From NCBI GenBank assembly GCA_964603785.1, contig CAZRWD010000003.1, positions 142,716 through 206,715 on the forward strand: a stretch of DNA of 64,000 bases, written 5' to 3'. The notes under the pieces were generated by a model. It was not told where the DNA came from. It made no database searches and saw nothing but the letters and a program-made list of their open reading frames with translations. Within the stretch, counting starts at the first letter, position 1. Each line of letters starts with the position of its first letter. A program made the position numbers and the translations under genes. The stretch comes from an uncultured bacterium. Its GTDB lineage: Bacteria; Fermentibacterota; Fermentibacteria; Fermentibacterales; Fermentibacteraceae. This document shows positions 5,191 through 62,498 of this stretch, piece by piece.

Positions 5191-5205
5191 AGTCCATCAC
5201 GCCCC

Positions 5206-5664
5206 TCAGTAGGAGTACTCGTCAGCGTTGAACATCACGCTGTAGAGCTCCTCGTAACGCATGGCGTTGAACAGCTCGACCATCGCCCCCATCGGGACCC
5301 TCTGGTCCACGTTGAAGATGATCACGTCGACGGCCTTGTTCTGCTCGCGCCAGAGCCTCTCGCTGAGTGTGCGCAGCTGGCCGGGGACGTCCCTCACGGG
5401 CATGTCGAAGTCCCCTATGCGCGCGACTATGTCGCTGCGGGGATCCCCGGGCTCGAGCTGCTTGATCCACACCCTCAGCGATAGCGACTGCCTCCCGACC
5501 TCGGTCATCACCTCGGGATGGGCCTGGGGGAAGCGGATGCTGAGCCCCCCCTCCTCCTTGAAGAGGGTCGTGCTCATGAAGAAGATGATCAGTATGAAGA
5601 CGAGGTCCGCCATCGTGGATGTGAAGATCTTGGCGCCGGCCCTGATCCTGCGTTTTACATGCAT
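5206..5664 (-). CDS. exbD: Biopolymer transport protein ExbD/TolR
   Basis: ExbD N-terminus (MADLVFILIIFFMSTTLF) and a size of about 150 aa. The start ATG overlaps the upstream exbD stop by 1 nt (TGATG). Confidence 0.75.
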   Translation of the reverse strand: MHVKRRIRAGAKIFTSTMADLVFILIIFFMSTTLFKEEGGLSIRFPQAHPEVMTEVGRQSLSLRVWIKQLEPGDPRSDIVARIGDFDMPVRDVPGQLRTLSERLWREQNKAVDVIIFNVDQRVPMGAMVELFNAMRYEELYSVMFNADEYSY

Positions 5665-6413: not shown

Positions 6414-6423
6414 GCGATCTCCC

Positions 6424-7245: not shown

Positions 7246-7324
7246 GTAGGACTACTCCTTTGTCGGCTCTTCAGGGGCGGCCCCGCCGATCGCGGAGCCG
7301 CCCCCGGGATCTTTCAGCCTTCTC

Positions 7325-10081
7325 CTACCACTCCAGCCCGATGCCGAATCGGATCATCCTCGGGCGGCCGTAGACGTACGGGTTGCTCAGGGAACCGCCC
7401 GGATCGTGGTCGGGTCTGCCGTCGCCGTCCTGGTCGGCGTCGTACCAGGCGATCTCGGAGATGGTGTTGATGTTGCGACGGTCGAACACGTTCATGACCC
7501 AGCAGTAGACATCGAACGTGACAGGGCCCGCCCAGATCTGGCGGTTGACCTTGATGTCTGTGTCCATCGTCCAGGGGTAGCGCCTGCCGTTGATCTCGGG
7601 AGACGCCGTGCCCTGGCTGTCCTGCGTGTAGGGGAAGCCGGAGCCGTAGCTGAACTGCAGGTTGACGCCGAACCCCTCGAGGAACGGATAGGTGCCGATC
7701 CTGGGACCCTCGCCGCGCGGGATGCGGAAGTCGACGTTGGCGTTGATGGAGTGCCTCTGATCCCAGTCGAGGTAGGACTCGCGCTTCGGGATGATCCAGC
7801 CGGCCCAGAGGTAGCTGTAGTTCTGGGTGGCGCCCGAGGACTTGCCCTTGGCGACCTGGTAGGTGTAGTTCGCGCTGGCCGAGAGGAAGCCGCTAGGGCG
7901 GCGCATTATCGTGAGCTCGGCACCGCGGACGTTGCCGTAGTCGCCGTTGATGTAGCGGTCATAGGCGTCGACGGCGCTGTAGAAGTTCTTCTCGGTGTCG
8001 ATCAGGCCGGTGATGTCCTTGTAGAAGCCGGTGATGTCCATGAGCGTGAAGTCGTCGAACTGGTGCTTCACGCCCACCTCGTAGGAGATGGTCTCCTCGG
8101 GCTCGAGATCGACGTTGCCGATCAGGGGGAAGGAGCCCGACAGGTCGTAGGAGGAGCCGTAGTACATCCTGTCGAACATGGGCATCTGGAAGTAGTGCCC
8201 GTAGGTGAAGTGCAGCACGTCGCGCTCGGTGATCGGGTGCGAGAAGCCCACGCGCGGGCTCAGATGGTACTTCATGGGAACTTCGATGGGGTTCACGATG
8301 TGGTCGGGGTCGCCCGGAGAGGTTCCCGGCGTGACGGGGTTCGAGGGGTCGGCCGGGTACTCGTCGAAGTTCGGGTCGAAGTAGTCGAACCTGAGACCTG
8401 CGTTAACGATCATGCCCCGGTACTCCATCTTGTCCTGGATGTACACGGCGCCCGAGTTGGGGAACGCATGGTAGCGGTTCAGGTAGATGTTGCCACCCGA
8501 GGCCGTGTCGACGCTGTAGTCGAAGACGTCGTAGTAGCGGGCCTCGAGGCCGGCCTTGATCTGGTGCTGCGTGGTGACCTGGCTGGTGATGTCGAACCTG
8601 GCCGTGGAGGTGGTGCTCTTGGTGTCGTTCCAGGCGTAGCGGCTCGCGCCCTGACGGTAGTAGCCGTCGGTGTCGACTATCCTGGTGGGCGTGTAGAGGA
8701 GCCAGTCGGCTATCGAATAGCCGTCACCCACCCAGCCGCCCTCCGGGTCGCGGATCTTGTAGGTGAACCGGGTGAAGTACTGGTTGACCTTGAGCTCCAT
8801 GAAGGTGGCGTCGCTGAGGGTCTGGGTGAGGCCGACGCCGTAGCTGGTGTTGAGCCAGAACCTCGTGGGGAGGCCGTACCTGATGTCCTGCCCCCAGGCG
8901 AGGGTGTCGCCGGTGGTCTCGTCGATGTAGGGGGTCTCGAACCTGTTCCAGTCCCACAGCGAGAAGCCCGCGATGCGGTCGAGGATGTAGCCCGTGAAGT
9001 TGAGCTTGGTGCGGGGGTTGGGCTTGACCGTGAGCTTCACGTTGGCGCTCCACTGGGTGCGCCAGTTGTTGAACTGGTACTCGTAGCGGCCCTCCTCGCC
9101 GCCGCCCGACTCCAGGAACTCGCCGGAGACGAAGAGGCGGACCTCGCCGGGGACCCTTATGCCCATGGCGGGGAGGAGGTAGCTGGTGAGGGGCTCGGGG
9201 CCGCCGACCGAACCCTCGAGGTTGAAGCGGGACTCGGAGAACGGGCCCGCGTCGCCGCGGTTGAACACCCAGGTGCGCCCGTCCTCGAAGCCGAGGGCCT
9301 GCCAGTCGTTGCCGTTGAAGCTGACCTCGCCGGTGTAGTTCGTCCCGCCCTCGCGGGTGACGATGTTGATGACGCCCGACTGGGCGTTGCCATACTCGGC
9401 CCCGAAGCCGCCGCTCATTATCGAGGTCTCGGACACGGCCGACATCGGGATGTCCGAGTTGAAGACGTTGGACGTCGGGTCGACCTGCGCCACGCCGTCG
9501 ACGAGGTAGGCCACCTCGCCCGAGCGGCCGCCGCGCATGTGGAGGCCGCCGCGCTCGGTGGCGCCGGCCTGGCGGTTGATGACGTCCGTGATGCCGGCGA
9601 CGGGCATGGTCCGGATCTCGTCGCGGCCGACGACCGTCATGGAGGCGGTGACGTCGCGGAGGATCATGCCCCTCTGGTCGGTGACCGTGATGACCGTGCT
9701 GCCGACCGTCTGCACGGACAGCTGGAAGTCGTAGCGCGTCGTGAGGTCGGCGCTGACCTGGATGCCGTTGGCGGTCAGGTCGCCCATGCCGACCATCCGG
9801 GCCACGAGGTTGTACTCGCCCGGTTCCAGGTTGATGATGAAGTACTCGCCGTTGGCGTCGGTCATCGCACCGTAGGGGGTACCCACGATCATGACCGTCG
9901 CGCCGACCAGCGGACTGCCGGAGGTGTCGGTGACCCTCCCGGCAATCTTGCCGGTGGTACCCGCGCCAGCAGCTAGCGCAAGGCACAGGACCAGAGCGGC
10001 AGTTATCGCCGAAGCCCTTCCAAGCACTGTTGACGCTCCTTTCCTTGACTGTGGAGTTGTTACCCTTTCCACACTTCTCAT
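7325..10081 (-). CDS. TonB-dependent receptor with N-terminal carboxypeptidase-regulatory-like domain
   Basis: Signal peptide. CarbopepD_reg-like beta-sandwich (GRVTDTSGSPLVGATVMIVGT...DANGEYFI). Plug domain (DEIRTMPVAGITDVIN...GGLHMRGGRSGEVAYLVDGV). Long beta-barrel ending in an aromatic residue (GIGLEW). Immediately upstream of exbB-exbD-exbD-tonB. Confidence 0.8.
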   Translation of the reverse strand: MRSVERVTTPQSRKGASTVLGRASAITAALVLCLALAAGAGTTGKIAGRVTDTSGSPLVGATVMIVGTPYGAMTDANGEYFIINLEPGEYNLVARMVGMGDLTANGIQVSADLTTRYDFQLSVQTVGSTVITVTDQRGMILRDVTASMTVVGRDEIRTMPVAGITDVINRQAGATERGGLHMRGGRSGEVAYLVDGVAQVDPTSNVFNSDIPMSAVSETSIMSGGFGAEYGNAQSGVINIVTREGGTNYTGEVSFNGNDWQALGFEDGRTWVFNRGDAGPFSESRFNLEGSVGGPEPLTSYLLPAMGIRVPGEVRLFVSGEFLESGGGEEGRYEYQFNNWRTQWSANVKLTVKPNPRTKLNFTGYILDRIAGFSLWDWNRFETPYIDETTGDTLAWGQDIRYGLPTRFWLNTSYGVGLTQTLSDATFMELKVNQYFTRFTYKIRDPEGGWVGDGYSIADWLLYTPTRIVDTDGYYRQGASRYAWNDTKSTTSTARFDITSQVTTQHQIKAGLEARYYDVFDYSVDTASGGNIYLNRYHAFPNSGAVYIQDKMEYRGMIVNAGLRFDYFDPNFDEYPADPSNPVTPGTSPGDPDHIVNPIEVPMKYHLSPRVGFSHPITERDVLHFTYGHYFQMPMFDRMYYGSSYDLSGSFPLIGNVDLEPEETISYEVGVKHQFDDFTLMDITGFYKDITGLIDTEKNFYSAVDAYDRYINGDYGNVRGAELTIMRRPSGFLSASANYTYQVAKGKSSGATQNYSYLWAGWIIPKRESYLDWDQRHSINANVDFRIPRGEGPRIGTYPFLEGFGVNLQFSYGSGFPYTQDSQGTASPEINGRRYPWTMDTDIKVNRQIWAGPVTFDVYCWVMNVFDRRNINTISEIAWYDADQDGDGRPDHDPGGSLSNPYVYGRPRMIRFGIGLEW

Positions 10082-10247: not shown

Positions 10248-10904
10248 TCAGCCCAGCAGGCCCCCCAGTCCGGGGATCGTGGGAAGCCATTCGAACAGTA
10301 GGAACTGCGCCTGCCCGATCAGCAGGCTGATCCTCGCCATGACGGTGTATCCGAAGCTCGCTCCGAACGCGACCATCAGTATCGTTATCCCGACCTTCGC
10401 GGCACCGCCCGTGAAGCCGGTGTGCGCCTTCGAGAAGAAGAAGTAGACGAGGCCGCACACGACTCCCGTCACCAGTATCAGGTTGTCGAGGAAGTTGGCG
10501 GCCCCCATGCCCGTGAGGGCGACGATGGTTCCCTCGACCTGTCCCAGGCAGTTCGTCTGCAGGGTGCTCACCAGGCTCAGGCCGGCCCCCGTGCCGACTA
10601 TCATCGCCAGCGCGAGCCTCGACATGCCCGCGATCCTGGGCACGAGCCGCATCAGCATGAAGAGCCCGAAGGCGCCGGGGACCAGCATCCAGTAGTCGGG
10701 AGTGCCGTCGGCGGCGCCCGTCAGCTCGTCCCAGAAGTTCGGTATGAGCACGTTCTCGATGTTGTATATGACCCAGTACCCTGCGCTCATCCCCACGAAG
10801 AGGTGCTCCGCGAACTTGTAGAAGGGGTTGTCCCTGTATAGGAAGCTGTAGAGCATCAGGGTGAGGATCGCTCCGAGCCAGATCCCCGTTATCTCCCAGT
10901 TCAT
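10248..10904 (-). CDS. Uncharacterised 6-TM integral membrane protein
   Basis: Six predicted hydrophobic helices with high GC3 coding. Four-nt overlap with the upstream gene. No family recognised. Confidence 0.5.
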   Translation of the reverse strand: MNWEITGIWLGAILTLMLYSFLYRDNPFYKFAEHLFVGMSAGYWVIYNIENVLIPNFWDELTGAADGTPDYWMLVPGAFGLFMLMRLVPRIAGMSRLALAMIVGTGAGLSLVSTLQTNCLGQVEGTIVALTGMGAANFLDNLILVTGVVCGLVYFFFSKAHTGFTGGAAKVGITILMVAFGASFGYTVMARISLLIGQAQFLLFEWLPTIPGLGGLLG

Positions 10905-11761
10905 CTCGAGACCCCCTTCCTGCGGTTCCTGACTGTCAGGAAGGTGATGTTCCCCAGGACTATGAACCCCATGATCACGAGGTGGGCCACGGACTGCGCG
11001 GCCATCCCCGGCGTGGCGGTCCCGGGAGGAGGGTCGTCGATGCCGGCCCTTATCATGGTCTCGTAGTCGGCGGCGCCCTTGAGCCCGCCGAGGAGACCTA
11101 TCATCTGGCCCGTGCCGAGATATGTGTAGAACTCGGGAGCGCTCACCGCGGTGCAGCCGCCACCGACCGGGAGGCCGAACCGGTCCCCGGCCATCATCAC
11201 CCAGGCATGGATGCCGGGGTCGCCCGCCGACAGCGAGATGACCAGATCGATGTCCTTCAGGCTCTGGACGCGGCCCAGCAGGGGGATGGAGTCATAGGGC
11301 ATGCCGTCCTTGTCCTGCGGATAGACGGCCCGTATGGAGCTTCCCATCCTCACGATGGAGACGCCCGCCCCGACGGTGTAGCCGAGGTTGACCCAGTCCA
11401 CGTACTGCACCGCCCCGAGACTGTCCCCCACGCTCGACAGGGCGTCCTGGGACAGGCTCGCCCCCTGCGGCCAGAGGGCCGTCGCTATGATCCTGTGGCC
11501 CCGGGTGAAGACGTGCTGGGCCAGGGCGACGGCCATGGGCTGGAGCTCGGGCATCGTCGAGGGGTCGTAGTCGTAGCTTATCAGTATCGTGGATCCCCCG
11601 GGCAGGGCGTCGATGTATCCGTAGAGGTCGCTGCTCGGACCCTCGCCGACCGGGATCGGGAAGTTCATCCGGAGAGCGAGCGGAACGAAGACGGAGAGGG
11701 CCATGAGGATGTAGATCACCCTCCGGTCGACCCTGTCCAGCTTTTCCAGGAGTCGTCTCAT
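10901..11761 (-). CDS. Uncharacterised bitopic membrane protein (N- and C-terminal TM helices flanking a soluble domain of about 200 aa)
   Basis: Start trimmed to MRRLLEKLDRV, where an ATG overlaps the stop of the upstream gene (ATGA at 11759-11763). TM at IYILMALSVFVPLAL and again near the C-terminus. Confidence 0.5.
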   Translation of the reverse strand: MRRLLEKLDRVDRRVIYILMALSVFVPLALRMNFPIPVGEGPSSDLYGYIDALPGGSTILISYDYDPSTMPELQPMAVALAQHVFTRGHRIIATALWPQGASLSQDALSSVGDSLGAVQYVDWVNLGYTVGAGVSIVRMGSSIRAVYPQDKDGMPYDSIPLLGRVQSLKDIDLVISLSAGDPGIHAWVMMAGDRFGLPVGGGCTAVSAPEFYTYLGTGQMIGLLGGLKGAADYETMIRAGIDDPPPGTATPGMAAQSVAHLVIMGFIVLGNITFLTVRNRRKGVSR

Positions 11762-12420
11762 CAGTCGGCACCTCCCAGATAGCTGCGCTCGATACCGAAG
11801 ATCATCCTTAGGGAGGTCGCCACCACGCCCAGCGCGGCGCCGATCATGACGGCCCTCTGGCCCGCCATGTTGGGCACCTGCATTATCCACTCGGCCACCT
11901 CGCTGACGAGGTTGGGGTGCGCCCCGGCGGCCGCTCCCGGGAAGAGCCTCCAGATGAGGTCGCCTATGGGCACCCGGCCGAGCATGACGACGAACGCGGA
12001 GAGCAGCAGCAGGGTGGCCCGCCAGTTGGAGGAGCGGAAGGCCCGGAAGGCGGCGGAGGCCACGAAGAATGCCAGCAGGCTGAACATGGTCGCGCCCATG
12101 GGCACGATCATGTTCTGGAACAGGTAGTCGAAAGGCCTGCCCTCGACAACCCCGTACCTCAGCCCGGTGACCATCATCAGGGCGAATCCGGCCAGGACCA
12201 CCGGGCTGTACTTCCAGTTCCTGACCCTGTGCCGTATCCTGGAGAAGTGCACCTGGACGAGATTGACGGCCCCGAGGAAGATCGCCGCCGAGGCCACGAT
12301 CATGTACCAGTCGGTGAGCCCCTCGCCCATGGTGGAGACGGGCCTGTGGGGGATGAAGAAGTGCAGGATCATCAGGATGCCGCAGAAGAACGTCACCAGG
12401 AGCGGAAGAAGCATTCTCAC
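11761..12420 (-). CDS. Uncharacterised 6-TM integral membrane protein
   Basis: Six hydrophobic segments with Arg/Lys-rich loops. Translationally coupled to the downstream gene. Confidence 0.5.
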   Translation of the reverse strand: MRMLLPLLVTFFCGILMILHFFIPHRPVSTMGEGLTDWYMIVASAAIFLGAVNLVQVHFSRIRHRVRNWKYSPVVLAGFALMMVTGLRYGVVEGRPFDYLFQNMIVPMGATMFSLLAFFVASAAFRAFRSSNWRATLLLLSAFVVMLGRVPIGDLIWRLFPGAAAGAHPNLVSEVAEWIMQVPNMAGQRAVMIGAALGVVATSLRMIFGIERSYLGGAD

Positions 12421-12430: not shown

Positions 12431-13624
12431 CTACTCGACGTGGAGCAGGAACCGCAGGAAGTCGGCCAGTCTCGAGGCCGGCTCCCATGCGGTGCCCACC
12501 GACGCGGCGGCTACGCCTACCACTATGAGGAACATTATCACGAGTTTCGCCGCGTCCTGCCCCTTCAGGCTGCCCAGGAGCTTCGGCTCGCGGGACAGGT
12601 ATGCGCTGGCCGCGAACAGCTCCTCGCCTATGAGCGTGTAGTCGCAGGCCGCGATGAAGAAGGGCAGCTGGCTGACCATCGCGGTGCCGGCTATCTGGAT
12701 CGCGCCCACGCTGCGGCCCGTCTCGGCCAGGATGAGGCTCTCGGCGTAGAAGGTGCCCAGGAGGAAGATCGCAGCGGGCCTCTGCCTCACCATCATCCCG
12801 TCGACTCCGGCGGCGTAGCCGAACTGGTCGTCGGTCAGGTAGTTGATGTTGTCGCGGCGGAAGGCGTCGGGCCGGCCGGCCTGCAGGTAGGCCTCCTTCA
12901 CGACCTCCTGGGCCACGCTCATCACGACGCTCCTGGTGTTGGGCACCAGGAGGCTGGCCCCGTACTCGGCGGTCTTCGAGGCGACCCTCCCCAGGATCAC
13001 CATGCTGGCGATGGTCTGTATGTCGTCCATGTCCATGATGCCGGGGATGTAGAGTACGGGGCGTCCCATCTCGGTGGCCCTGCCGACCGCCTCGTCGACC
13101 GCGGCCAGACCGCCGATCTCCCTGATGAAGAGGCTGCGGCCGCGCTTGCCCCTCTCGATGTACAGGATGATCACGCTGGACAGGAGGACGGTGATGACGA
13201 ACATCCCCACCCTCCTGCTGTGGAACCACTGGGCGCTCGGGACGGCGGACATCATGAGGCTGCGGCCGACGGGGACGCCTCCGCTCCATGCCTCGAGGAC
13301 GTATCCGTACTCGACGCCGTCCTCGAGCCCGTCGTCGCTCCACGACATCGATGCGCCGGAGACCCATCCGACCTCTTCGGCCACGCCTCCGCCGGACAAC
13401 CTGAGGATCCTCACGGAATCGGGCAGGGCACCATCGGTCGAATAGGTCCACGAGAGGTCCAGCATGCCTCCGACGTCGTCCGGGGCGTCTGAGGCCTCGA
13501 ACGAGTCTATCCTGGCCAGCGGCGCCGGCGGGGTGACCGCAGCCCCGGTCGAGTCGACCGGGGCGGCCGCCGCCGTGCCGGACAGGATGGCCAGGAGAGG
13601 CAACATCAGCTCGCATCTCTTCAT
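12431..13624 (-). CDS. Uncharacterised membrane protein with N-terminal FN3-like ectodomain
   Basis: Start trimmed to MKRCELMLPLLAILSGTAAAA (signal peptide). FN3-like segment (LDLSWTYSTDG...YGYVLEAWSG). TM helix (VGMFVITVLLSSVIILYI), a cytoplasmic domain of about 200 aa, and a C-terminal TM helix. Confidence 0.5.
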   Translation of the reverse strand: MKRCELMLPLLAILSGTAAAAPVDSTGAAVTPPAPLARIDSFEASDAPDDVGGMLDLSWTYSTDGALPDSVRILRLSGGGVAEEVGWVSGASMSWSDDGLEDGVEYGYVLEAWSGGVPVGRSLMMSAVPSAQWFHSRRVGMFVITVLLSSVIILYIERGKRGRSLFIREIGGLAAVDEAVGRATEMGRPVLYIPGIMDMDDIQTIASMVILGRVASKTAEYGASLLVPNTRSVVMSVAQEVVKEAYLQAGRPDAFRRDNINYLTDDQFGYAAGVDGMMVRQRPAAIFLLGTFYAESLILAETGRSVGAIQIAGTAMVSQLPFFIAACDYTLIGEELFAASAYLSREPKLLGSLKGQDAAKLVIMFLIVVGVAAASVGTAWEPASRLADFLRFLLHVE

Positions 13625-13716: not shown

Positions 13717-14838
13717 TCATTCCTCTATGAGCTCCACGTTGGCGCGGGGCACGACGGCCCGCGAGCCGTCAGCGAACTCGACCTCGAGCACCCTCACCCT
13801 GGCCTCGGTCTCGAGCAGCTGGAGCTCGGCCGGGAGGGCGGAGACCTTCCCGAGCATGCCGAAGTACGGCGCCCTGATGACCCTGACGGGAGACCCGACG
13901 TCGAGCGCTCCGTGCTCGCGGTCCGTCTCCCTGCCCTTCACCTCCGGGCCGACCGGGATCACGACCTCCGGCCGTATCACGCCGGCCCTGATCTGGGTCG
14001 CACCGTTGATGCTCGCGACCATGCCCGCACGGCTGCACAACAGGTCGAATGTGTTGCCGGCCATGTTCATCCTGCCGAAGCCCTCGGTCAGGATGAGGGT
14101 TATGCCCTTGTTCTCGTGCCCGGTGATCGCCACCCCGAGGTCGTAGCCCAGGAAGTCCTTCAGGTCCCTGTCGTCGAACCCTCCCGAGACCACCCCGCGC
14201 ACGCCCGTCGAGACCGCCTTCCTGAGGGTCTCGTGGCTCACGAAGGAGCCTCCCACGAGGACCTTGCCCGCGCAGGCCGGGGTGACGAGATCGGGGGTGA
14301 GCTCCTGCTCGGGGGACTTCACGACCGGCATGATCTCGCCCCGGGTCTCGCCTCCTATCCCGAAGATGCCCTGGACGAAGGTGGCCCGCGTCTCCACGAC
14401 GACGCCCTCCTCCGGGATGACCTCGACTATCCTGCCCTTCACATAGGCCTCGATGGTGACGGGTATCGGGGGCTCGCGGAGGACGGCCTGGCCCGTCACC
14501 TTGTTGAAGCTCTCGAAGGTGCCCACTATGGGCGACCTGACGGTGTTCCTGAAGAGACCGAACAGCCCCTTCGACTGGGCGAAGGGCTCGTTCTCGGCCA
14601 GCGGCTCGCCCTCGGCCTTCAGGAGGAGGGTCGGGATGTCCTCGGGCGGGACGCCCATGATGTTGGCGAGGTTGATCATCTTGACGTTGCCGGGGAGTTC
14701 GGTGCTCGCGACGACCGTTCCGGCGTCGACCTCGTCGCCCGTCCCGACCGTCACCCGGCCCTTGAGCGGCAGGCGCCTCTCCTTGCGGACTATCGTCACA
14801 TCTGCGACCCGGAGCCCCGGGGTGTATGCGAAAGCCAT
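13717..14838 (-). CDS. Uncharacterised 373-aa protein, partner of the ASKHA-fold protein
   Basis: Protein-like composition. N-terminal region resembles a lipoyl/hybrid-barrel motif (GRVTVGTGDEVDAGTVVAS). No TM. The start lies 4 nt after the stop of the upstream ASKHA gene. No family assignment. Confidence 0.5.
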   Translation of the reverse strand: MAFAYTPGLRVADVTIVRKERRLPLKGRVTVGTGDEVDAGTVVASTELPGNVKMINLANIMGVPPEDIPTLLLKAEGEPLAENEPFAQSKGLFGLFRNTVRSPIVGTFESFNKVTGQAVLREPPIPVTIEAYVKGRIVEVIPEEGVVVETRATFVQGIFGIGGETRGEIMPVVKSPEQELTPDLVTPACAGKVLVGGSFVSHETLRKAVSTGVRGVVSGGFDDRDLKDFLGYDLGVAITGHENKGITLILTEGFGRMNMAGNTFDLLCSRAGMVASINGATQIRAGVIRPEVVIPVGPEVKGRETDREHGALDVGSPVRVIRAPYFGMLGKVSALPAELQLLETEARVRVLEVEFADGSRAVVPRANVELIEE

Positions 14839-14841
14839 ATC

Positions 14842-16704
14842 CTACCTCCCCAGGGAGAGGAACTTGTCAGGGTAGGCCGAGAGGGACGACGCCCACTCCT
14901 GGAGCTTCCTGACCCTCTCGGGGTTGTTCTGCGGCAGCACGAAGGGCCTGCCCCTGCCGTCCAGCACGACGCCCACGACACCGCCCTCGAGCTCGCACTC
15001 GTGGATCCTGCCGGGGCCGGACCCGACATCGACGCCCTTGACCGGCCTGATGACCGCCCGGGCCTTCTCGCCGACCCCCAGCTGGAGGACCTGCATCTTC
15101 CCGAACTCGATCGCCGTCTCGCGAGTCTTCCCGTCGGGCATGGTGAGGGACACGGCGGCGGCCGGCTGCCCGTCCCTGCCCTGGCCGACCGGCGCCACGC
15201 AGGAGCCCAGCCTGATGAGGCAGTCCTTGTCGAACACCTCGGTGGCCGCTCTCGGGAGCACCTCCGAGAGCACTCCGAGCTGCGGCATCATGAATATCGA
15301 GTCGACGGCCAGCATGGTGACGCCCTCCGGCAGGAAGGAGTCGATCAGCAGCATGGCGGCCTGGCAGCGCCTGGGAGCGTGCGACAGGACGCCTCCCGAC
15401 CCTATGAGGAGGTCCAGCGCCATCATGTCCACGAGGGTCGCGCCCGTCTGGGTCTGGTCGAAGGCGTCGCCTATCGTCCTCTCCTGGGCGACACCCTTCA
15501 GTCCGACGGCGAGGTCCCTGTGCTGCACCAGCGCCAGCCTGAGGGCCTCCCTGGCGATGGCCTGCTCCACGATCAGCTCCTCGAGGGTCTGCGGGATCGT
15601 CGTCGGCCTGATCATCTTGTTGCGAATGCGGTTGCGGAGGTCCGCCTCCTCCATCCTGAACGGGACCCAGCGCATCACGTTGTCGAGCCCGGCACTCGCC
15701 AGGACGTTGGACACGCTGTAGCTCATGCCCAGGTTGGCAGAGACCGTGCGGTTGAACACCGGCTGCCCCTCGCTGTCGAAGACGCTGAACACGTCGGTGG
15801 TCGCACCTCCGATGTCGACTCCCATGACGTGTATGCCCTCGGCCCGGGCGACCATCTCGATGAGCTTCCCCACGGCTCCCGGGGTGGGCATTATCGGGAC
15901 GTTGACCCATTCGCTGTCGACGTAGCGTCCCGTCCACTGCATCAGCTTGCCGTATCCGGGGGCCTGGGCCATGACATGCTCCATGAACAGCTCATGGATG
16001 GTGTCCCTCGCCGGACCGAGGTTCTCCCTCTCCAGGACGGGCCTGATGTTGGGGACGGTCTTCAGGGCGGCCATCTCTCCGAGCTCGCTCTCGACCTCGG
16101 GCGCGGCATCCCTGTTCCCCGCATAGATGACCGGAAGCTTGTAGCCCACGCCGAACCTGGGCTTGGGGTCCGCGGCCCTTATGACCTCGGCGAGCTCTAC
16201 GACGTGGTCGACCGTGCCCCCGTCGATGCCTCCGGAGAGGAGGATCATGTCGGGACGGAGCCTGCGGATGTCCGCCACCTTCTCGTGGAAGAGCCTGCCG
16301 TCGTTGGAGGCGACGACGTCCATGACTATGGCGCCGGCCCCCAGGGCGGCCCTCTGGGCGCTCTCGCCGGTCATCGACTTCACCACGCCGGCCACCGTCA
16401 TCTGGAGGCCGCCGCCGGCCGAGGAGGTTGACATGTAGATGTCCGCGCCCCTGGTCGGGTCGTCACCGACGAAGATCCCGTCGCTCTTCTCGTTGAGGAA
16501 CTTCCTGCCGAGAAGGTCCTCTATCTCGCCCACGGCGTTCAGGACGCCCTTGGTGACGTCCTCCGCAGGCGCCTCCACGGTGGTGGGAGCCTCTCCCCTG
16601 GTGATGAGGCGGTATTCACCATCCCTCTTCTCGATGAGGATCGCCTTCGTGGTGGTGCTGCCGCAGTCGGTCGCGATGATCCTCGTTATCTCCTTGCCGG
16701 CCAA
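14842..16704 (-). CDS. ASKHA-superfamily (actin/Hsp70/sugar-kinase fold) protein, GlmL/MutL- or EutA-like
   Basis: N-terminal phosphate-1 motif IATDCGSTTTKAILIE, typical of GlmL/MutL (glutamate mutase L), EutA and BadF/BcrA-type ASKHA ATPases. A second Gly-rich motif (MGVDIGGATTDVF) suggests a duplicated ASKHA domain. Size is 620 aa. Confidence 0.6.
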   Translation of the reverse strand: MAGKEITRIIATDCGSTTTKAILIEKRDGEYRLITRGEAPTTVEAPAEDVTKGVLNAVGEIEDLLGRKFLNEKSDGIFVGDDPTRGADIYMSTSSAGGGLQMTVAGVVKSMTGESAQRAALGAGAIVMDVVASNDGRLFHEKVADIRRLRPDMILLSGGIDGGTVDHVVELAEVIRAADPKPRFGVGYKLPVIYAGNRDAAPEVESELGEMAALKTVPNIRPVLERENLGPARDTIHELFMEHVMAQAPGYGKLMQWTGRYVDSEWVNVPIMPTPGAVGKLIEMVARAEGIHVMGVDIGGATTDVFSVFDSEGQPVFNRTVSANLGMSYSVSNVLASAGLDNVMRWVPFRMEEADLRNRIRNKMIRPTTIPQTLEELIVEQAIAREALRLALVQHRDLAVGLKGVAQERTIGDAFDQTQTGATLVDMMALDLLIGSGGVLSHAPRRCQAAMLLIDSFLPEGVTMLAVDSIFMMPQLGVLSEVLPRAATEVFDKDCLIRLGSCVAPVGQGRDGQPAAAVSLTMPDGKTRETAIEFGKMQVLQLGVGEKARAVIRPVKGVDVGSGPGRIHECELEGGVVGVVLDGRGRPFVLPQNNPERVRKLQEWASSLSAYPDKFLSLGR

Positions 16705-16726: not shown

Positions 16727-17116
16727 TCAGCGGCTCCTGCCGCGGAAGATCCTCTTGAGGATGCCGACGCGCCGCGGGCGGGAGAGCCTCTCGAGGCTCC
16801 TGCGCTCCGACTCGCGCGCATTCTCGTCCTCTATCGCCTTCAGGAGCTTCTCGACATTCTCCCTGTCCTCGAGCATCCTGACGAACCTGTAGTACTCGCC
16901 GGACTCCACGACGAGCGAGACCATGGGGTTGAGGAAGACCAGGAACTGGTTGCCGAGGAAGGAGAGGGGCTTGACCGACTCGAGGAAGACGATGGCCGGC
17001 ACGGTCAGCTCGCGCGCCACGATCGCCCTCGCTATCCTCCCGATCAGATCGTCGAAGCACTCGGCCGGCTGGTCAGCCGCTTCGTCCGCCCACAGACCTG
17101 TCCCTGACGAACGCAA
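16727..17116 (-). CDS. Hypothetical small protein
   Basis: Protein-like composition (ELTVPAIVFLESVKPLSFLGNQFLVFLNPMV...), unlike the overlapping Arg-rich frame. The 5' end overlaps the preceding small gene by about 44 nt, so the true start is probably internal. Confidence 0.3.
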   Translation of the reverse strand: MRSSGTGLWADEAADQPAECFDDLIGRIARAIVARELTVPAIVFLESVKPLSFLGNQFLVFLNPMVSLVVESGEYYRFVRMLEDRENVEKLLKAIEDENARESERRSLERLSRPRRVGILKRIFRGRSR

Positions 17117-17513
17117 TTACTTCCTCCCTGTTCTCCGGTGAGAACTGCACGGAGAGCCCCCTGAACCTGGCCAGCCTGGTCGGCCCGGGGAAGGGGCTGA
17201 GGAGCATGCCGCGCGGGTCGGTGTAGAAGCTCCTCACCTCGCTCCACCTCCGCCGCTCGGTCCCGAACACGGACCTCTTGGCCACCCCCTCCTCGTCCAT
17301 GCGGTAGGAGGTGGGCAGGATGAAGCTCCACAGCGAGAGGCACAGGAGCGAGAAGCCCACCAGGCCCCACCATGCGCTCCCTCCGTAGACAGATGCGAGG
17401 ACGGAGGCAGCGAGCATTATAACCGCGAGGGCCAGCGCTGCCAGTGGACGCTCCCGGGCCGGGTGGGACCGCCACTCGAGGGTCCCGGGCACCTGTGTCA
17501 GATCCTCTCCCAT
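17073..17513 (-). CDS. Small membrane protein with two TM helices and a PH-like (bPH/DUF304-type) C-terminal domain
   Basis: Hidden in the 3' part of a long spurious ORF (17073..18734). The ATG at 17511-17513 (MGEDLTQ...) follows the gcvPB stop. Two TM helices (LAALALAVIMLAASVLASVY and WWGLVGFSLLCLSLWSFIL), then a soluble domain of about 75 aa. Confidence 0.4.
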   Translation of the reverse strand: MGEDLTQVPGTLEWRSHPARERPLAALALAVIMLAASVLASVYGGSAWWGLVGFSLLCLSLWSFILPTSYRMDEEGVAKRSVFGTERRRWSEVRSFYTDPRGMLLSPFPGPTRLARFRGLSVQFSPENREEVIAFVRDRSVGGRSG

Positions 17514-18958
17514 CCCTCGGCCAGGTCCAGATCCTTCACCGCCTTCACCTCGTCCAGCCTCAGCACCGGCGTGTTGACCGGGGCGTCGGTGACGAGGTGC
17601 GGCTTCTCGAGGACCTCGGCGGCTATCCCCGTCATGGCGGCGGCGAAGGAGTCGAGCGACTCCAGGCTCTCGGTCTCCGTCGGCTCGATCATCATCGCCT
17701 CGTGGACTATGAGGGGGAAGTAGATCGTCGGGGCATGGAAACCGTAGTCGAGCAGCCTCTTGGCCATGTCCAGCGTCTTCACGCCCCTTGCGAGCTGCCT
17801 GTCCCCCGACAGCACGAACTCGTGCATGCAGGGGCCGTGGTCGAAGGGAAGGTCGAAGTGCTCCCTGAGTATGACCTTCAGGTAGTTCGCGTTGAGGAGC
17901 GCCGTCTCGGAGACCTCCCGCAGCCCCCCGGCCCCGAGTGTCCGGATGTACGCCCAGGCGCGGACGAGCACGCCGAACTGGCCGTGGAAGGCGAGGAGCC
18001 TGCCCAGCGAGGCCGGATCGTGATCGCGGAAGGCAGCCCGCCCGTCCCCGCCCCTGACGACGACCGGGTCGGGCAGGTACCTGCCGAGGAAGTCCCTGCA
18101 GGCCACGGGGCCCGAACCGGGACCGCCCCCGCCGTGGGGGGTCGAGAAGGTCTTGTGGAGGTTCAGGTGGCAGACGTCGAACCCCATGTCCCCGGGGCGG
18201 GCTATGCCGAGGAGGGCGTTCATGTTGGCCCCGTCCATGTAGCAGAGGCCCCCGGCATCGTGCACGATCCTGGTTATCTCCCCGATCCTCGACTCGAATA
18301 TCCCTAGCGTGTTGGGATTGGTTAGCATGAGGGCCGCGGTGCGGGGGCCGGCCTTGGCGGCCAGGTCCTCTAGGTCGACCTCGCCCCTCGAATCCGATTT
18401 CACGCTCACGATCCCGAAGCCCGCGAGGGTGCAGCTGGCCGGATTGGTCCCGTGGGCCGAGTCGGGCATGAGCACCTCGGTCCTGCCCTCGTCGCCCCTC
18501 TCGAGATGCCACCGCCTTATCAGCAGGAGGCCGGTCAGCTCGCCCTGGGCGCCCGCGGCCGGCTGGAGCGTGACCTGGTCGAAGCCCGTGATCTCCGCGA
18601 GGAATCCGCTGAGCTGGAGCATCAGCTCGAGGGCGCCGCGGCAGTGCGCGGCGGGCGTCAGCGGGTGGAGGCCGGAGAAGCCCTCGAGCCTGGCCAGGTC
18701 CTCGTTCAGCTTGGGATTGTACTTCATCGTGCACGAGCCGAGCGGGTAGAGCCCCTTGTCGACATGGTAGTTGCGGGTGCTGAGGTTGACGAAGTGCCTC
18801 ACGGCCTGTGACTCGCTCACCTGCGGCAGCCCGACGGGCCCCTCCCTGAGGGCTCCGGTGCCGAACAGGGCGGCGGGATCGACGGACGGTACGTCCAGGG
18901 GTGGGAGGTCGATGCCCTTCCTGCCGCAGCAGCTCTTCGCGAATATCGTCTCGTGCAT
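17498..18958 (-). CDS. gcvPB: Glycine dehydrogenase (decarboxylating) subunit 2
   Basis: Conserved GcvPB sequence (CTMKYNPK...HLNLHKTFSTPHGGGGPG...). Start trimmed to MHETIFAK, adjacent to the gcvPA stop. Confidence 0.9.
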   Translation of the reverse strand: MHETIFAKSCCGRKGIDLPPLDVPSVDPAALFGTGALREGPVGLPQVSESQAVRHFVNLSTRNYHVDKGLYPLGSCTMKYNPKLNEDLARLEGFSGLHPLTPAAHCRGALELMLQLSGFLAEITGFDQVTLQPAAGAQGELTGLLLIRRWHLERGDEGRTEVLMPDSAHGTNPASCTLAGFGIVSVKSDSRGEVDLEDLAAKAGPRTAALMLTNPNTLGIFESRIGEITRIVHDAGGLCYMDGANMNALLGIARPGDMGFDVCHLNLHKTFSTPHGGGGPGSGPVACRDFLGRYLPDPVVVRGGDGRAAFRDHDPASLGRLLAFHGQFGVLVRAWAYIRTLGAGGLREVSETALLNANYLKVILREHFDLPFDHGPCMHEFVLSGDRQLARGVKTLDMAKRLLDYGFHAPTIYFPLIVHEAMMIEPTETESLESLDSFAAAMTGIAAEVLEKPHLVTDAPVNTPVLRLDEVKAVKDLDLAEGWERI

Positions 18959-18959
18959 C

Positions 18960-20300
18960 TCAGCCCCTCCCTGCCGCGGAGGCCGCCGCATCGACCAGCC
19001 CGTCCATCTCGGCTCGGGTGCGCTTCTCGGTCACGGCGGTGAGGAGGGCTCCGGGACCCAGCGAGGGCACCGGCACCCCGGCGAGATAGCCGGCGGAGGC
19101 GGCGGCATCGAGAACCCGGCCGGCGCCGCAGGAGTAGTCGAGCACGAACTCCCTGAAGAAGGGGGCCTCGAACACCTTCCTGACGCCCGGCAGGGCGGCG
19201 AGCCTGTCGTGCAGGTATCGCGCCTTCGAGAGGCACTGGTGGGCGATGGCGCTGAAGCCCGCCTCTCCGGCGAGCGAGAGGTGTACCGTGGTCGCGAGGG
19301 CCATCAGGGCCTCGTTTGTGCAGATGTTGCTGGTGGCCTTCTCCCTGCGGATGTGCTGCTCCCTGGTCTGGAGGGTGAGCACGTAGCCCGTCTGGCCCGC
19401 CCTGTCCTCGGTCCTCCCTATGATCCTGCCCGGCATGTTGCGCACGAGCTCCTTCCTCGCGGCCATGAAGCCGGCGTAGGGCCCGCCGAACGACATGGGG
19501 ATGCCGAGGCTCTGCCCCTCGCCCACCGCGATGTCGGCTCCCGCGGCTCCGGGGCTCCTGAGGACGGCTGCGGCGACGGGATCGATGCACGCGACGAGGA
19601 GGGCGCCGTGCCCGTGGCACAGAGCGGCTGCCGCGGAGACGTCCTCGACCAGCCCGAAGTAGTTCGGCTGCTGGACGAGGAGCGCGGCGGCCCCGTCGAT
19701 GGCCGGGGAGACCGAGTCGAGGTCTAGCAGGCCGTCAGGGCGGACGGGGACCGGGACCGTCTCGAAGCCGCCCTGGGAGAGGTAGCTCCCGATGACCTCG
19801 AGATACCTGGGATTGAGCGATGCGGGCAGCAGCACCCTGTTCCTGCGGGTCACCCTCATGGCCATGAGGGCGGCCTCTGCCGCTGCGCTCGCCCCGTCGT
19901 ACATGGAGGCGTTCGCGCAGTCCAGCCCGCAGATGCGGGCGATCATCGTCTGATACTCGTATATGCACTGCAGGGTGCCCTGGCTGACCTCCGCCTGGTA
20001 CGGAGTGTACGCGGTGTAGAACTCGCTCCGGAGGAGGATGTGGTCCACCGCGGCCGGCACGAAGTGGTCGTAGGCCCCGGACCCGGCGAAGCAGACGAGC
20101 CTCGCGCCGGTGTTGGCTTCGGCCAGTGCGCGGGCTTCGCGGCCCAGTTCCAGCTCGGAGGCCGCTGCGGGGAGCGAGAGCGGACGGTCCAGCCTGACTT
20201 CGGGCGGGACCGGTTCTGCGAGGTCTGCGACCGAGCGCACCCCGATCCTGTCGAGCATGCGCTCCCTGTCCGCCCCGAGGATGGAGATGAACCTGCTCAT
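18960..20300 (-). CDS. gcvPA: Glycine dehydrogenase (decarboxylating) subunit 1
   Basis: GcvPA hallmarks (FLGAGAYDHFVPAAV...SEFYTAYTPYQAEVSQGTLQ). Confidence 0.9.
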   Translation of the reverse strand: MSRFISILGADRERMLDRIGVRSVADLAEPVPPEVRLDRPLSLPAAASELELGREARALAEANTGARLVCFAGSGAYDHFVPAAVDHILLRSEFYTAYTPYQAEVSQGTLQCIYEYQTMIARICGLDCANASMYDGASAAAEAALMAMRVTRRNRVLLPASLNPRYLEVIGSYLSQGGFETVPVPVRPDGLLDLDSVSPAIDGAAALLVQQPNYFGLVEDVSAAAALCHGHGALLVACIDPVAAAVLRSPGAAGADIAVGEGQSLGIPMSFGGPYAGFMAARKELVRNMPGRIIGRTEDRAGQTGYVLTLQTREQHIRREKATSNICTNEALMALATTVHLSLAGEAGFSAIAHQCLSKARYLHDRLAALPGVRKVFEAPFFREFVLDYSCGAGRVLDAAASAGYLAGVPVPSLGPGALLTAVTEKRTRAEMDGLVDAAASAAGRG

Positions 20301-20307
20301 GCCGCGG

Positions 20308-20694
20308 CTACTCCCCTGCCAGCTCTCCGTAGCGGGCCGCGGTCAGCAGATCCTCGAACTGCCCCGCGTCCGAGGGCTGTATCCTGACGAGCCAGCCCTC
20401 CCCGTAGCAGTCGCGGTTCACGAGGCCCGGGTCGGACTCCAGGGCGGGGTTGACCTCGACGATCCTGCCGTCGACGGGCGCATAGAAGTCCTCCGCCGTC
20501 TTGACGGCCTCGAGGACCCCCAGGCTGTCCTTCCTGCGGACCTCCCTGCCCGCCGCGGGGAGCTCCACCATCACTATCTCGCCCATCTGCTCCTGCGCAT
20601 GATCGGTGACGCCCATGGCCAGGCGGCCGTCGGCCTCCCTCCTGATCCACTCGTGGCTCTCGGTGTACCTGAGGTCAGCGGGAATGGCGCTCAT
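20308..20694 (-). CDS. gcvH: Glycine cleavage system H protein
   Basis: Lipoyl-lysine motif LEAVKTAED and the typical 128-aa H-protein fold signature (YTESHEWI). Confidence 0.9.
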   Translation of the reverse strand: MSAIPADLRYTESHEWIRREADGRLAMGVTDHAQEQMGEIVMVELPAAGREVRRKDSLGVLEAVKTAEDFYAPVDGRIVEVNPALESDPGLVNRDCYGEGWLVRIQPSDAGQFEDLLTAARYGELAGE

Positions 20695-20727
20695 TCCTCG
20701 ACTCCTTCCGTGGGGACCGGTCCCCTG

Positions 20728-21828
20728 CTACTGCCTGCGGCTGCCGGTCGTGTAGAACGGCAGCTTGACTATCGTGACGGGCACCCTCCTGCCCCTGATG
20801 TCGGCCTCGAGGGTCGTGCCCGATCTGGAGAGCTCCTTCTCCACATATGCGAGACCCACCGACGAGTTGAGAGCCGGGGCCAGCGTTCCGCTGGTGACCG
20901 TCCCGACCATCTTCTCGCCCTGGAATATCTCGGTGCCGTGGCGGATGATGCCCCTCCCCCCCACGGACAGCCCGACGAGGGTCCGGGAGACGCCCTCCTC
21001 CTTCTGCCTCTGGAGGACCTCCCTGCCTATGAACTCCTTCCCGGAGGCGAGCTTGACCACCCATCCCAGCCTGGCTTCGATGGGTGACGTCGAATGATCT
21101 ATATCATTGCCGTACAATACATACCCAACCTCGAGCCTGAGGGTGTCCCGGGCTCCGAGGCCTATCGGCCGGATGCCCGAACCGGCACCGGCCTCCATGA
21201 CGGCGTCCCAGACCGCTGCGGCATCCCCGCCGGCCACGTAGAACTCGAATCCGTCCTCACCCGTGTACCCGGTGCGCGCGATGAGAGCCTCCCTGCCGGC
21301 AACCCTGCCGGTCTCGTGGGCGTAGTAGGGGATCTCCTCCAGGTCGGTCTTCGTGAGGAGCGAGGCGATCTTCTGGGCATCGGGCCCCTGCACGGCCACG
21401 AGTGCGGTGTCGTCGCTCTCGTTGGTTATCTCCACGCCGCAGGACCGAGAGTGGCTGGTGACCCAGGCCCAGTCCTTCTCGATGTTGGACGCGTTGACGA
21501 CCATCAGGTACTCGTCGTCGGCCAGCCTGTACACGATCAGATCGTCGACGATGCCGCCGTCGGGGTAGCACATGGCGCTGTAGAAGGCCTTGCCGGGGGC
21601 GACGTCGGCGTTGTTGGTCAGCAGGCTCTCCAGGAACTCGAGCGATCCGGGCCCCTTGACCCTGAACTCGCCCATGTGGGAGAGATCGAACACCCCCGAT
21701 CCCCGCCTGACCGCCAGGTGCTCCTCGATGACGCTGCCGTAGTGGATCGGCATCAGGTAGCCGGCGAACGGCTCGATGTGGGCTCCGAGAGACACGTGCC
21801 TGTCATGGAGAGGCGTTCTCTTGTCCAT
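20728..21828 (-). CDS. gcvT: Aminomethyltransferase (glycine cleavage T protein)
   Basis: GcvT motifs (TPLHDRHVSLGA...FAGYLMPIHYGS...FDLSHMGEF). First gene of the gcvT-H-PA-PB operon. Confidence 0.9.
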   Translation of the reverse strand: MDKRTPLHDRHVSLGAHIEPFAGYLMPIHYGSVIEEHLAVRRGSGVFDLSHMGEFRVKGPGSLEFLESLLTNNADVAPGKAFYSAMCYPDGGIVDDLIVYRLADDEYLMVVNASNIEKDWAWVTSHSRSCGVEITNESDDTALVAVQGPDAQKIASLLTKTDLEEIPYYAHETGRVAGREALIARTGYTGEDGFEFYVAGGDAAAVWDAVMEAGAGSGIRPIGLGARDTLRLEVGYVLYGNDIDHSTSPIEARLGWVVKLASGKEFIGREVLQRQKEEGVSRTLVGLSVGGRGIIRHGTEIFQGEKMVGTVTSGTLAPALNSSVGLAYVEKELSRSGTTLEADIRGRRVPVTIVKLPFYTTGSRRQ

Positions 21829-21895
21829 CGCTTATCTTCTCCCTGGAATCGGAGTAAAACCCTGTCGAATCTACTTCCGCCCGGAGGGGTGTGCA

Positions 21896-22492
21896 ATGCG
21901 GGCCAGGGGCGTCGATCGAAGGCGTCTTCGTGTTGCCCCGGAGGAGCATCCGTTTCCACCAGGGGATACGCGCAGCCTGGAGTCGGCGGCCAGGGCCTGG
22001 CTCCTGCGGCGGGGGGTGCCGTGCTGGACCTGCCCCGCCGGACCGGGCACCCGGGGGAGGTACGGACTCCTCCTGCACGGCGGCAGGAGGGTCCTCGTCG
22101 GACCCTGGCCCATCCCCGGATTCTCTCTCGAGGAGATGATCCAGGCCAGGTGCGACTTCCTCCTGGCGGTCTCCGGGGAGGGAGGGGATGCGCGTCCGGC
22201 GGGCTTCGTCACCCTCGCCGACATCGCGGGCACTTCACAGCCCTGGACGAGGCCGGACCTGTCGGCATCCGGCTCCAGGCCCCCCGAGGACCTCCCGGCG
22301 ATGGTCGGCAGACCCTCCAGGCCTGGACCTGCCTTCCTCGCGGGTTCGCTCCGGCTTCTGCTCCTCGGGGAGCCTCCGCCCCCGCCCCCCGGCGACTGGA
22401 GCGGCCTGGAGCCCCTCCAGCCGGTTCCCGCAGCCACTCAGAGCCCGGGGCAGGATGCGGCTATCTCTTCCGATATACCCTTGTCGCCGTAG
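21896..22492 (+). CDS. Hypothetical Pro/Arg-rich protein (doubtful)
   Basis: ATG preceded by a GGAGGGG ribosome-binding site. GC3-rich, but low-complexity and disordered-looking. It is the only candidate in a 600-bp gap and may be spurious. Confidence 0.2.
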   Translation: MRARGVDRRRLRVAPEEHPFPPGDTRSLESAARAWLLRRGVPCWTCPAGPGTRGRYGLLLHGGRRVLVGPWPIPGFSLEEMIQARCDFLLAVSGEGGDARPAGFVTLADIAGTSQPWTRPDLSASGSRPPEDLPAMVGRPSRPGPAFLAGSLRLLLLGEPPPPPPGDWSGLEPLQPVPAATQSPGQDAAISSDIPLSP

Positions 22493-24090: not shown

Positions 24091-24108
24091 CTCTCCTCCC
24101 GGTGGTCT

Positions 24109-57231: not shown

Positions 57232-57251
57232 GCCAGGGGGGGGCGTCGCTG

Positions 57252-62497: not shown

Positions 62498-62498
62498 G

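Follow-up and report, generated by a model that had tools for sequence, protein, structure and literature searches.

The locus

The window analysed here is a stretch of 64,000 nucleotides from an uncultured bacterium of the Fermentibacteraceae (GenBank assembly GCA_964603785.1, contig CAZRWD010000003.1), and the element in question is a gene for a 620-aa ATPase of the ASKHA superfamily, which is followed at once by the gene for a 373-aa partner protein. A first-pass annotation had placed the ATPase close to GlmL/MutL and had remarked on the lack of cobalamin-dependent enzymes around it. The comparisons presented below indicate that it represents a distinct clade of the GlmL/MutL family, that it probably acts with the partner as a single unit, and that this pair is genomically tied to a set of small and membrane-bound proteins. 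These genes constitute a module of eight, from p146 to m218 in the list below, where gene coordinates follow the open reading frame (ORF) list and the gene calls on an identical public contig.

20728–21828, minus strand: gcvT (ORF list)
20308–20694, minus strand: gcvH (ORF list)
18960–20300, minus strand: gcvPA (ORF list; Pfam GDC-P / GcvP2_C matches in the glycine cleavage operon)
17498–18958, minus strand: gcvPB (ORF list; Pfam GDC-P / GcvP2_C matches in the glycine cleavage operon)
17073–17513, minus strand: p146, 146 aa, two transmembrane (TM) helices and a C-terminal bacterial-PH-like domain
16727–17116, minus strand: p129, 129 aa, a small conserved protein
14842–16704, minus strand: GlmL/MutL-like ASKHA ATPase, 620 aa (PF13941), with a core at residues 9–495 and an extra C-terminal domain at 496–620
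13717–14838, minus strand: partner protein, 373 aa, with barrel-sandwich hybrid, swivelling beta/beta/alpha and KOW/SH3-like domains
12431–13624, minus strand: DUF6754 membrane protein (PF20539, 405 bits)
11761–12414, minus strand: m219, polytopic, about six TM helices (hydropathy scan)
10901–11761, minus strand: p329, 286 aa as called, two TM helices around a domain of about 215 aa
10248–10904, minus strand: m218, polytopic, about five to six TM helices (hydropathy scan)
4519–10027, minus strand: TonB-dependent receptor, ExbB, two ExbD and TonB (Pfam), downstream of the cassette

The ATPase ORF begins with TTG and is preceded by a ribosome-binding site (GGGAGAG). Its stop codon is separated from the ATG of the partner by a gap of 3 nt (TAG GAT ATG), and GGGAGG lies within the last codons of the ATPase gene; for these reasons the tight coupling of the two genes, already proposed in the first-pass annotation, is read as real. 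The same annotation had extended the coupling to the adjoining membrane protein gene, and that part is less secure. The reading frames of the partner and the DUF6754 protein overlap by ATGA (13717–13720), but an alternative DUF6754 start, the ATG at 13624, has its own GGAGG and opens a signal peptide as read from the sequence. This is likely to be the true start, so that coupling at this junction is less certain than that between ATPase and partner. On the other side of the module, the gcv operon (17498–21828) runs straight into p146, and because of this gcvT-gcvH-gcvPA-gcvPB and the module appear to be one transcription unit. Two further ideas about the locus were rejected: a glycine riboswitch governing this operon, since an Rfam scan of the window returned one tRNA only, and an anti-phage defence system, since PADLOC produced no match among the eight module proteins.

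Family membership and structure of the ATPase

The N-terminal motif IATDCGSTTTKAILIE occupies residues 9–24 of the 620-aa protein. The PF13941 (MutL/GlmL) model matched with 408.3 bits against a cut-off of 27, residues 9–495 aligning with positions 1–450 of 450, and the protein is judged from this full-length profile match to be a true member of the GlmL/MutL ASKHA family, as the first-pass annotation had suggested. The features that define ASKHA proteins, i.e., a two-lobed actin-like fold with phosphate-1, phosphate-2 and adenosine motifs, were all found. The EutA or BcrA-BadF affinity offered at the same time was not recovered, as neither PF06277 (EutA) nor PF01869 (BcrAD_BadFG) matched the protein in Pfam at E ≤ 0.01; one distant homologue reached 18.7 bits with BcrAD_BadFG, where the cut-off is 31.5. 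The hydantoinase models matched the protein below threshold and over short stretches only (Hydantoinase_A, PF01968, 21.8 bits against 22.9; Hydant_A_N, PF05378, 21.2 against 25.2), although the nearest solved folds do belong to the HyuA type (see below).

Membership of the family did not extend to orthology with GlmL. The protein scored beneath the cut-offs of the NCBIfam GlmL equivalog (NF040745, 221.4 bits against 475), the Or-4 equivalog (NF040744, 208.8 against 600) and the glmL_fam subfamily (TIGR01319, 158.9 against 204.05), although similarity to the latter two models was full-length (E = 1e-61 and 2e-46, respectively). The Joint Genome Institute (JGI) tags homologues as 'TIGR01319 family' despite the sub-cut-off score of the window protein. 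A translated search of plasmid records identified true glmL genes in Peptoclostridium, Salmonella, Prevotella, E. coli, Rhizobium and Ensifer; these were 27–30% identical to the 620-aa query and covered only residues 1 to about 494. In two of these regions the gene order was glmS-glmL-glmE-methylaspartate ammonia-lyase, with GlmL 461–467 aa in length, whereas the window protein has 620 aa, a C-terminal domain of 125 aa, a conserved or fused partner, membrane protein neighbours and no mutase nearby. Because it lies under all of the NCBIfam GlmL cut-offs, shares only 27–30% identity and carries a C-terminal domain that true GlmL lacks, the 620-aa protein is not considered a GlmL orthologue.

The nucleotide site is common to both. 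Across the clade of the window protein, the fused forms described below, true GlmL and distant relatives, the invariant positions were D13, G15, S16, T17, T19 and K20 of the phosphate-1 motif and D297, G299, G300, A301, T302, T303 and D304 of the phosphate-2 motif, plus G437. Comparison of true GlmL, the clade and distant relatives also showed S94-S95-A96-G98-G99 and D152 through G163 to be invariant. The nucleotide site of the 620-aa protein is predicted to be intact and, since its motifs are invariant across true GlmL and the clade, ATP chemistry is probably shared by the two while genomic context is not.

No solved structure was detectable for PF13941 members by single sequence or profile. 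The AlphaFold2 model of the ATPase was of moderate quality, with a predicted local distance difference test (pLDDT) score of 71. Several of the most conserved segments were poorly predicted in this model, and these stretches might be contact surfaces. The core (9–495) holds a flavodoxin-like insert, while residues 496–620 (approximately 125 aa) form a beta-rich domain and a helix that were modelled with pLDDT of about 85–96. This domain is specific to the clade, true GlmL ending near query residue 494. The first-pass annotation had explained the length of 620 aa by a duplicated ASKHA core; PF13941 matched the protein once rather than twice, and the extra length is accounted for by the C-terminal domain. 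An internal likeness of this domain to the partner was rejected also, as hhalign found none. The top Foldseek matches were acetophenone carboxylase, N-methylhydantoinase and acetone carboxylase, all HyuA-type subunits (E = 3e-9 to 2.5e-5; 5l9w at 3e-9, 9h03 at 4e-9, and 5svb), with low TM-scores of 0.2–0.26. Matches to Hsp70, FtsA, PilM and Ppx/GppA ranked after these, and the ranking agrees with the sub-threshold Hydantoinase_A matches.

Extent and conservation of the clade

The first protein search returned at least 8000 matches, led by Candidatus Fermentibacter and Fermentibacteraceae. The best 120 of these were 66–100% identical and, save for a few fragments, 600–632 aa long; named homologues among them carry the labels 'glutamate mutase L' or 'methylaspartate mutase'. 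A scan of species representatives, with one genome per species, yielded at least 600 candidate stretches, and 597 of the 600 listed encode a relative of the ATPase. The best 80 of these at least 597 relatives were 61–79% identical and came from at least 15 phyla, their sources being Fermentibacteria, Edwardsbacteria, Ignavibacteria, Zixibacteria, WOR-3, Gemmatimonadetes, Eisenbacteria, TA06, Planctomycetota, Sumerlaeota, Dormibacterota, Deltaproteobacteria, Marinimicrobia, Cloacimonadota, Calditrichaeota, Latescibacteria, Lentisphaeria and Acidobacteria. An exhaustive search of 50%-identity representatives found 3112 clusters at E ≤ 1e-3, and 760 at E ≤ 1e-30. Beyond Fermentibacteria, the median identity to the window ATPase was 66%; about 65% identity across phyla is the level expected of core machines such as ATP synthase or Hsp70.

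On these alignments the ATPase is assigned to a clade of its own, very large and highly conserved, whose members have about 600–625 aa and an added C-terminal beta-domain; identity within it remains at 61–70% over at least 15 phyla. Thousands of database entries named 'glutamate mutase L' or 'methylaspartate mutase' are probably misnamed, and the dominant form of the GlmL/MutL family appears unrelated to B12 mutases. A literature search on the ATPase clade, the partner and DUF6754 produced nothing relevant; a statement on the family was found only in one source, where the passage concerned describes MutL/GlmL as a chaperone reactivating glutamate mutase (PMC4682846). The ATPase is a variant of a known family, while the module as a whole is without a described counterpart; the conserved ATPase form is wholly uncharacterised, and is accompanied by three membrane protein families for which databases have no description.

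Absence of B12 enzymes

Neither a B12 mutase, an ethanolamine ammonia-lyase nor a 2-hydroxyacyl-CoA dehydratase was found among the approximately 45 window ORFs surveyed by Pfam scan or precomputed Pfam matches, a survey that did not extend to three small ORFs at 61814–63957; this agrees with the first-pass annotation. Ornithine and lysine aminomutase genes were equally lacking from the scanned window ORFs. The sole cobalamin-related gene of the window encodes a 599-aa protein with B12-binding and radical-SAM domains (27039–28838, plus strand), about 10 kb away and unrelated to mutases. What had been presented as a peculiarity of this locus nevertheless holds generally throughout a very large clade. 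A tblastn search of related loci totalling 1.47 Mb, which did not cover GlmE-type and aminomutase large subunits, identified methylmalonyl-CoA-mutase-like or MeaB-like genes in one locus only. The exception was a Cloacimonadota contig (L087:2534–7883), where a fused ATPase-partner gene lies within 6 kb of a methylmalonyl-CoA mutase (two subunits) and MeaB. This is the sole B12 mutase encountered near any homologue; it is on the opposite strand, with two unrelated genes between, and its proximity is probably due to chance.

The partner protein

The partner of the window had no match in Pfam, NCBIfam or the PDB, whether as a single sequence or, for the PDB, as a profile. It is well conserved, with 49–62% identity between phyla, more than 100 invariant positions and the motifs FxQGIFGIGGE, GYDLGVAITG, TEGFG and NGATQIRAGVxRPE. 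Its AlphaFold2 model (pLDDT 83) has no whole-chain counterpart in the PDB, and is composed of three known folds: a barrel-sandwich hybrid at the N-terminus, a swivelling beta/beta/alpha domain in the middle and a KOW/SH3-like domain at the C-terminus. The first of these matches the N-terminal barrel-sandwich hybrid of NqrA and RnfC; the likeness is confined to that domain, and the partner is without their Fe-S or flavin domains.

Two carrier roles suggested by these folds were rejected. Weak Biotin_lipoyl (PF00364) matches were obtained for 20 of 28 partner homologues, but near the hairpin there is only one lysine, K53 of NVKM, and other phyla have Q, E, H or R at this position. Similarly, a phospho-histidine relay like that of the mobile domain of enzymes using phosphoenolpyruvate (PEP) would require a phospho-accepting histidine; the fold of the middle domain does match swivelling domains, but no histidine is invariant anywhere in the partner. 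With neither a conserved hairpin lysine nor a conserved histidine, it is judged to be neither a biotin or lipoyl carrier nor a phospho-histidine carrier.

In 32 of the 41 complete loci, which are those with at least 8 kb on both sides, the partner gene is found no more than 1.2 kb from the ATPase gene. In addition, 41 of the best 150 representative clusters were single polypeptides, mostly of about 900–1190 aa, with a partner-like region C-terminal to the ATPase. One such fused protein (P0242) aligned with the whole partner (43% identity, E = 5e-93), and a distant one (P0305) aligned with it at an hhalign probability of 98.4%. Fusion is common in Cloacimonadota, where the unfused pair is also present (L058 and L076). 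From adjacency in most loci and fusion in many lineages, of which fusion is the more decisive, we infer that ATPase and partner are one two-part functional unit or enzyme.

In 15 loci of the Zixibacteria and Ignavibacteria type (L002:11868–12668 and 14 others), a 266-aa protein (c266) is encoded between the ATPase and partner genes. This protein carries a signal peptide as well as a TM anchor at its C-terminus, and matches no family.

The membrane cassette

Conservation of the module was surveyed across 85 loci by tblastn with the operon proteins of the window, and by independent clustering of all ORFs in these loci; the same set was recovered by both. The small protein p129 was present in 52 of the 85, directly upstream of the ATPase gene, and p146 in 30. 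The four cassette proteins were found at similar frequencies (DUF6754 protein, 41 loci; m219, 40; m218, 37; p329, 36). Of the 41 complete loci, 23 had the full four-gene cassette and 25 had p129.

The predicted architectures of these proteins are varied. p129 has no match in Pfam or NCBIfam; it contains a hydrophobic or amphipathic motif (PAIxFLESxKPLSFLGSQ) and a charged helical tail. p146 has two TM segments by hydropathy scan and a weak Pfam match to bPH_6. The DUF6754 protein is predicted to comprise, in order, a signal peptide, a periplasmic FN3-like domain, a TM helix, a conserved domain of about 195 aa and a second TM helix; its N-terminal region matched FN3 domains in a profile search of PDB sequences, and the 195-aa domain is placed in the cytoplasm by the positive-inside rule. 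By the same rule, the domain of about 215 aa between the two TM helices of p329 is probably periplasmic. No consistent Pfam match and no match to a solved structure was obtained for m219, p329 or m218, and these three share no homology among themselves. An analogy with Rnf/Nqr, prompted by the RnfC/NqrA-like N-terminal domain of the partner and by the two membrane proteins of about 218 aa, was rejected, because Rnf-Nqr and related Pfam models gave no match at E ≤ 1 among 31 homologues of m219, 24 of m218 and 30 of p329, and because m219 is not homologous to m218, nor the DUF6754 protein to p329.

The position of the cassette relative to the pair differs between lineages. It lies downstream and in the same direction in Fermentibacteria, Eisenbacteria, Sumerlaeota, Latescibacteria and Deltaproteobacteria, and divergent and upstream in loci of the Ignavibacteria and Calditrichaeota type and in some of the Zixibacteria type. 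The gene for p129 follows the partner in Lentisphaeria, in one Marinimicrobia locus (L082) and in an unclassified metagenome-assembled genome (L069), while the DUF6754 gene comes last in one locus. In several genomes the cassette (DUF6754, m219, p329, m218) was present in two to three tandem copies beside a single ATPase-partner pair (L043, L053, L060, L065, L083, L084, L022, L026 and L051; e.g., L083:2286–9400). The pair is thus genomically tied to p146, p129 and the four-gene cassette, and this link outlasts both rearrangement and tandem amplification.

Two ATPase homologues are themselves anchored in the membrane, with an extracytoplasmic N-terminus and one TM helix ahead of the ATPase. In P0249 (1332 aa) the outer part is a peptidase M1 ectodomain with HEIAH, and in P0243 (1304 aa) it consists of bacterial TSP3 calcium-binding repeats. 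Each looks like a link, within one protein, from an outside domain to a cytoplasmic ATPase.

Recurrent neighbours

Outside the module, certain neighbours recurred. The gcvPB gene was directly upstream of the string of p146, p129 and ATPase genes, with overlaps or very short gaps, in 34 of the 85 loci (Fermentibacteria, WOR-3, Eisenbacteria and TA06). In five Zixibacteria and Ignavibacteriaceae loci its place was taken by a SoxB/ThiO-like flavin adenine dinucleotide (FAD) amine oxidoreductase. Loci of the Ignavibacteria and Zixibacteria type had tolQ-tolR-tolA-tolB-pal-cpoB after the partner gene, while in Fermentibacteria the cassette was followed by a TonB-dependent receptor and exbB-exbD-exbD-tonB. 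In two Marinimicrobia loci (L036 and L047) ExbB and ExbD genes came after the partner, with three other genes between. Overall, TolQ/ExbB-like genes occurred within 10 kb in 13 of the 41 complete loci; other loci had unrelated neighbours. These neighbours are suggestive of amino-acid (glycine) catabolism and of roles in the envelope or in uptake, and the repeated operon link to glycine cleavage and Ton/Tol offers concrete experimental handles.

A conserved 185-aa protein with no described function was present in L006–L012 about 5.3 kb upstream of the ATPase gene, past gcvT and on the opposite strand. At roughly this position the window contains a 188-aa ORF (21871–22437, minus strand), but on the same strand as gcvT.

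Functional interpretation

Taken together, the evidence leans towards an ATPase in two parts that is independent of B12 and acts together with a new inner-membrane complex. The mechanism envisaged is as follows. Reactivases of B12 enzymes combine an ASKHA ATPase with a swivelling domain, and the DdrA/GdrA reactivase of diol and glycerol dehydratases, like EutA, would be comparable in concept, as an ASKHA protein and a swivel that remodel a client with ATP. By analogy with the conformational work proposed for these proteins, ATP binding and hydrolysis in the ASKHA cleft would drive a conformational cycle of the mobile swivel domain of the partner. This work would be applied at the cytoplasmic face of the membrane cassette, with p129, p146 and the predicted cytoplasmic part of the DUF6754 protein as docking points, such that the ATPase-partner pair would serve a new inner-membrane machine as its energising or chaperone subunit. 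Given the neighbouring gcv operon, SoxB/ThiO-like gene, TonB receptor with ExbBD-TonB and Tol-Pal genes, the machine would most likely move or process something across the inner membrane of diderm bacteria, in connection with glycine catabolism. The presence of tandem cassettes beside one pair suggests a shared engine with interchangeable membrane parts. If the ATPase does energise the cassette, many phyla that are little studied and abundant in the environment would couple ATP to membrane work in a manner so far unrecognised.

A more far-reaching form of the proposal is tentative, and more apt to fail than to hold. Here the eight-gene module would be a new class of inner-membrane machine with a motor of the actin/Hsp70 fold (ASKHA) rather than a P-loop, in which one engine serves one to three interchangeable four-protein cassettes and drives uptake or translocation in FCB, PVC, Acidobacteria, Deltaproteobacteria and other diderms; GlmL would then be a small, specialised offshoot.

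Several observations weigh against a membrane machine. The fused forms of Cloacimonadota stand alone, with no cassette nearby, while 9 of the 41 complete loci are without an adjacent partner and 17 of the 41 without a cassette gene within 10 kb; for these reasons the function of the pair may be independent of the membrane proteins. A phospho-relay of the PEP-enzyme type is unlikely, since the swivel of the partner has no conserved histidine, and movement of the swivel would be analogy only. The ATPase model is mediocre (pLDDT 71), with several of the most conserved segments badly predicted, and the membrane topologies rest on a hydropathy scan and the positive-inside rule. Finally, the lineages with a gcv link are related (FCB group), so that common descent rather than selection could account for part of the synteny.

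Among the alternatives, a soluble ATP-dependent metabolic enzyme survives best, though it is unlikely. In this case the ASKHA subunit would activate a small molecule in the manner of the HyuA type (N-methylhydantoinase, 5-oxoprolinase, and acetone and acetophenone carboxylases), the partner would contribute the other part, catalytic or carrier, the reaction would supply glycine-related metabolism or draw from it, and the cassette would be only a transporter, or unrelated. The nearest solved folds and the sub-threshold Hydantoinase_A and Hydant_A_N matches are consistent with such an enzyme, and the fused proteins that occur alone, without membrane genes, would suit it well; the pair is also operonic with gcvTHP in four phyla and beside the SoxB/ThiO-like oxidoreductase in two others, and the many invariant polar residues of the partner are enzyme-like. 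However, the window protein falls outside the Pfam threshold for the HyuA type, and where a HyuB-like subunit would be expected there is instead the barrel-sandwich hybrid, swivel and KOW partner, whose domains resemble carriers or adaptors and in which neither an active site nor a conserved His, Cys or metal ligand can be recognised. Moreover, 65% identity across phyla is unusually high for a peripheral catabolic enzyme, the link with membrane proteins outlasts several independent rearrangements, and some ATPase homologues are membrane-anchored.

An actin-like or scaffolding role in the envelope is very improbable. The ASKHA protein would polymerise or form a platform like FtsA, PilM or MreB, and organise the cassette together with Tol-Pal in growth or division. 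The very high conservation of the ATPase, including segments that are badly predicted in the monomer, would fit extensive protein-protein contacts, and the order ATPase, c266, partner, tolQ-tolR-tolA-tolB-pal-cpoB recurs in loci of the Ignavibacteria and Zixibacteria type. PilM and FtsA, which dock with membrane complexes, were among the ASKHA fold matches, but kinases and Hsp70 matched the window ATPase at least as well; enzymes provide the closest folds, and the ATPase differs from PilM and FtsA in its fully conserved catalytic motifs, flavodoxin-like insert and other partners. Linkage to Tol-Pal is restricted to some lineages, others having gcv or unrelated neighbours, and polymerisation is without evidence.

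Least probable of all is a classical GlmL-type reactivase that would use ATP to release damaged cobalamin from a B12 mutase or radical enzyme encoded elsewhere, with the neighbourhood being irrelevant: Pfam family, ATP motifs, the described role of GlmL/MutL (PMC4682846), the methylmalonyl-CoA mutase of L087 and a resemblance of the ASKHA and swivel combination to diol-dehydratase reactivase would all favour it, but the protein lies under every GlmL-family cut-off at 27–30% identity to true GlmL, its conserved neighbours are the partner and membrane proteins rather than B12 enzymes, and neither the window nor 86 related loci yielded a mutase except that of L087, which has its own chaperone in MeaB.

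Other features of the window

Three further loci, unconnected with the module, raised questions of gene structure. The ATP-dependent PEP carboxykinase (PEPCK) at 22438–24966 (minus strand) has a longest ORF of 842 aa, but the PEPCK domain does not begin until residue 311; translation probably starts far downstream, and otherwise the protein would have a 300-aa N-terminal extension. A 528-aa ORF at 55870–57456 (minus strand) combines a TatD-type DNase domain (79–325) with a radical-SAM domain (345–494), and is either an unusual fusion or two genes merged through the choice of ORF. Lastly, the longest ORF upstream of clpP-clpX, which probably encodes trigger factor, shares its 5' end with the tRNA gene found by Rfam (61671–61752, minus strand, 55 bits); because of this overlap, the start of the protein-coding gene must be further downstream than the longest ORF would place it.

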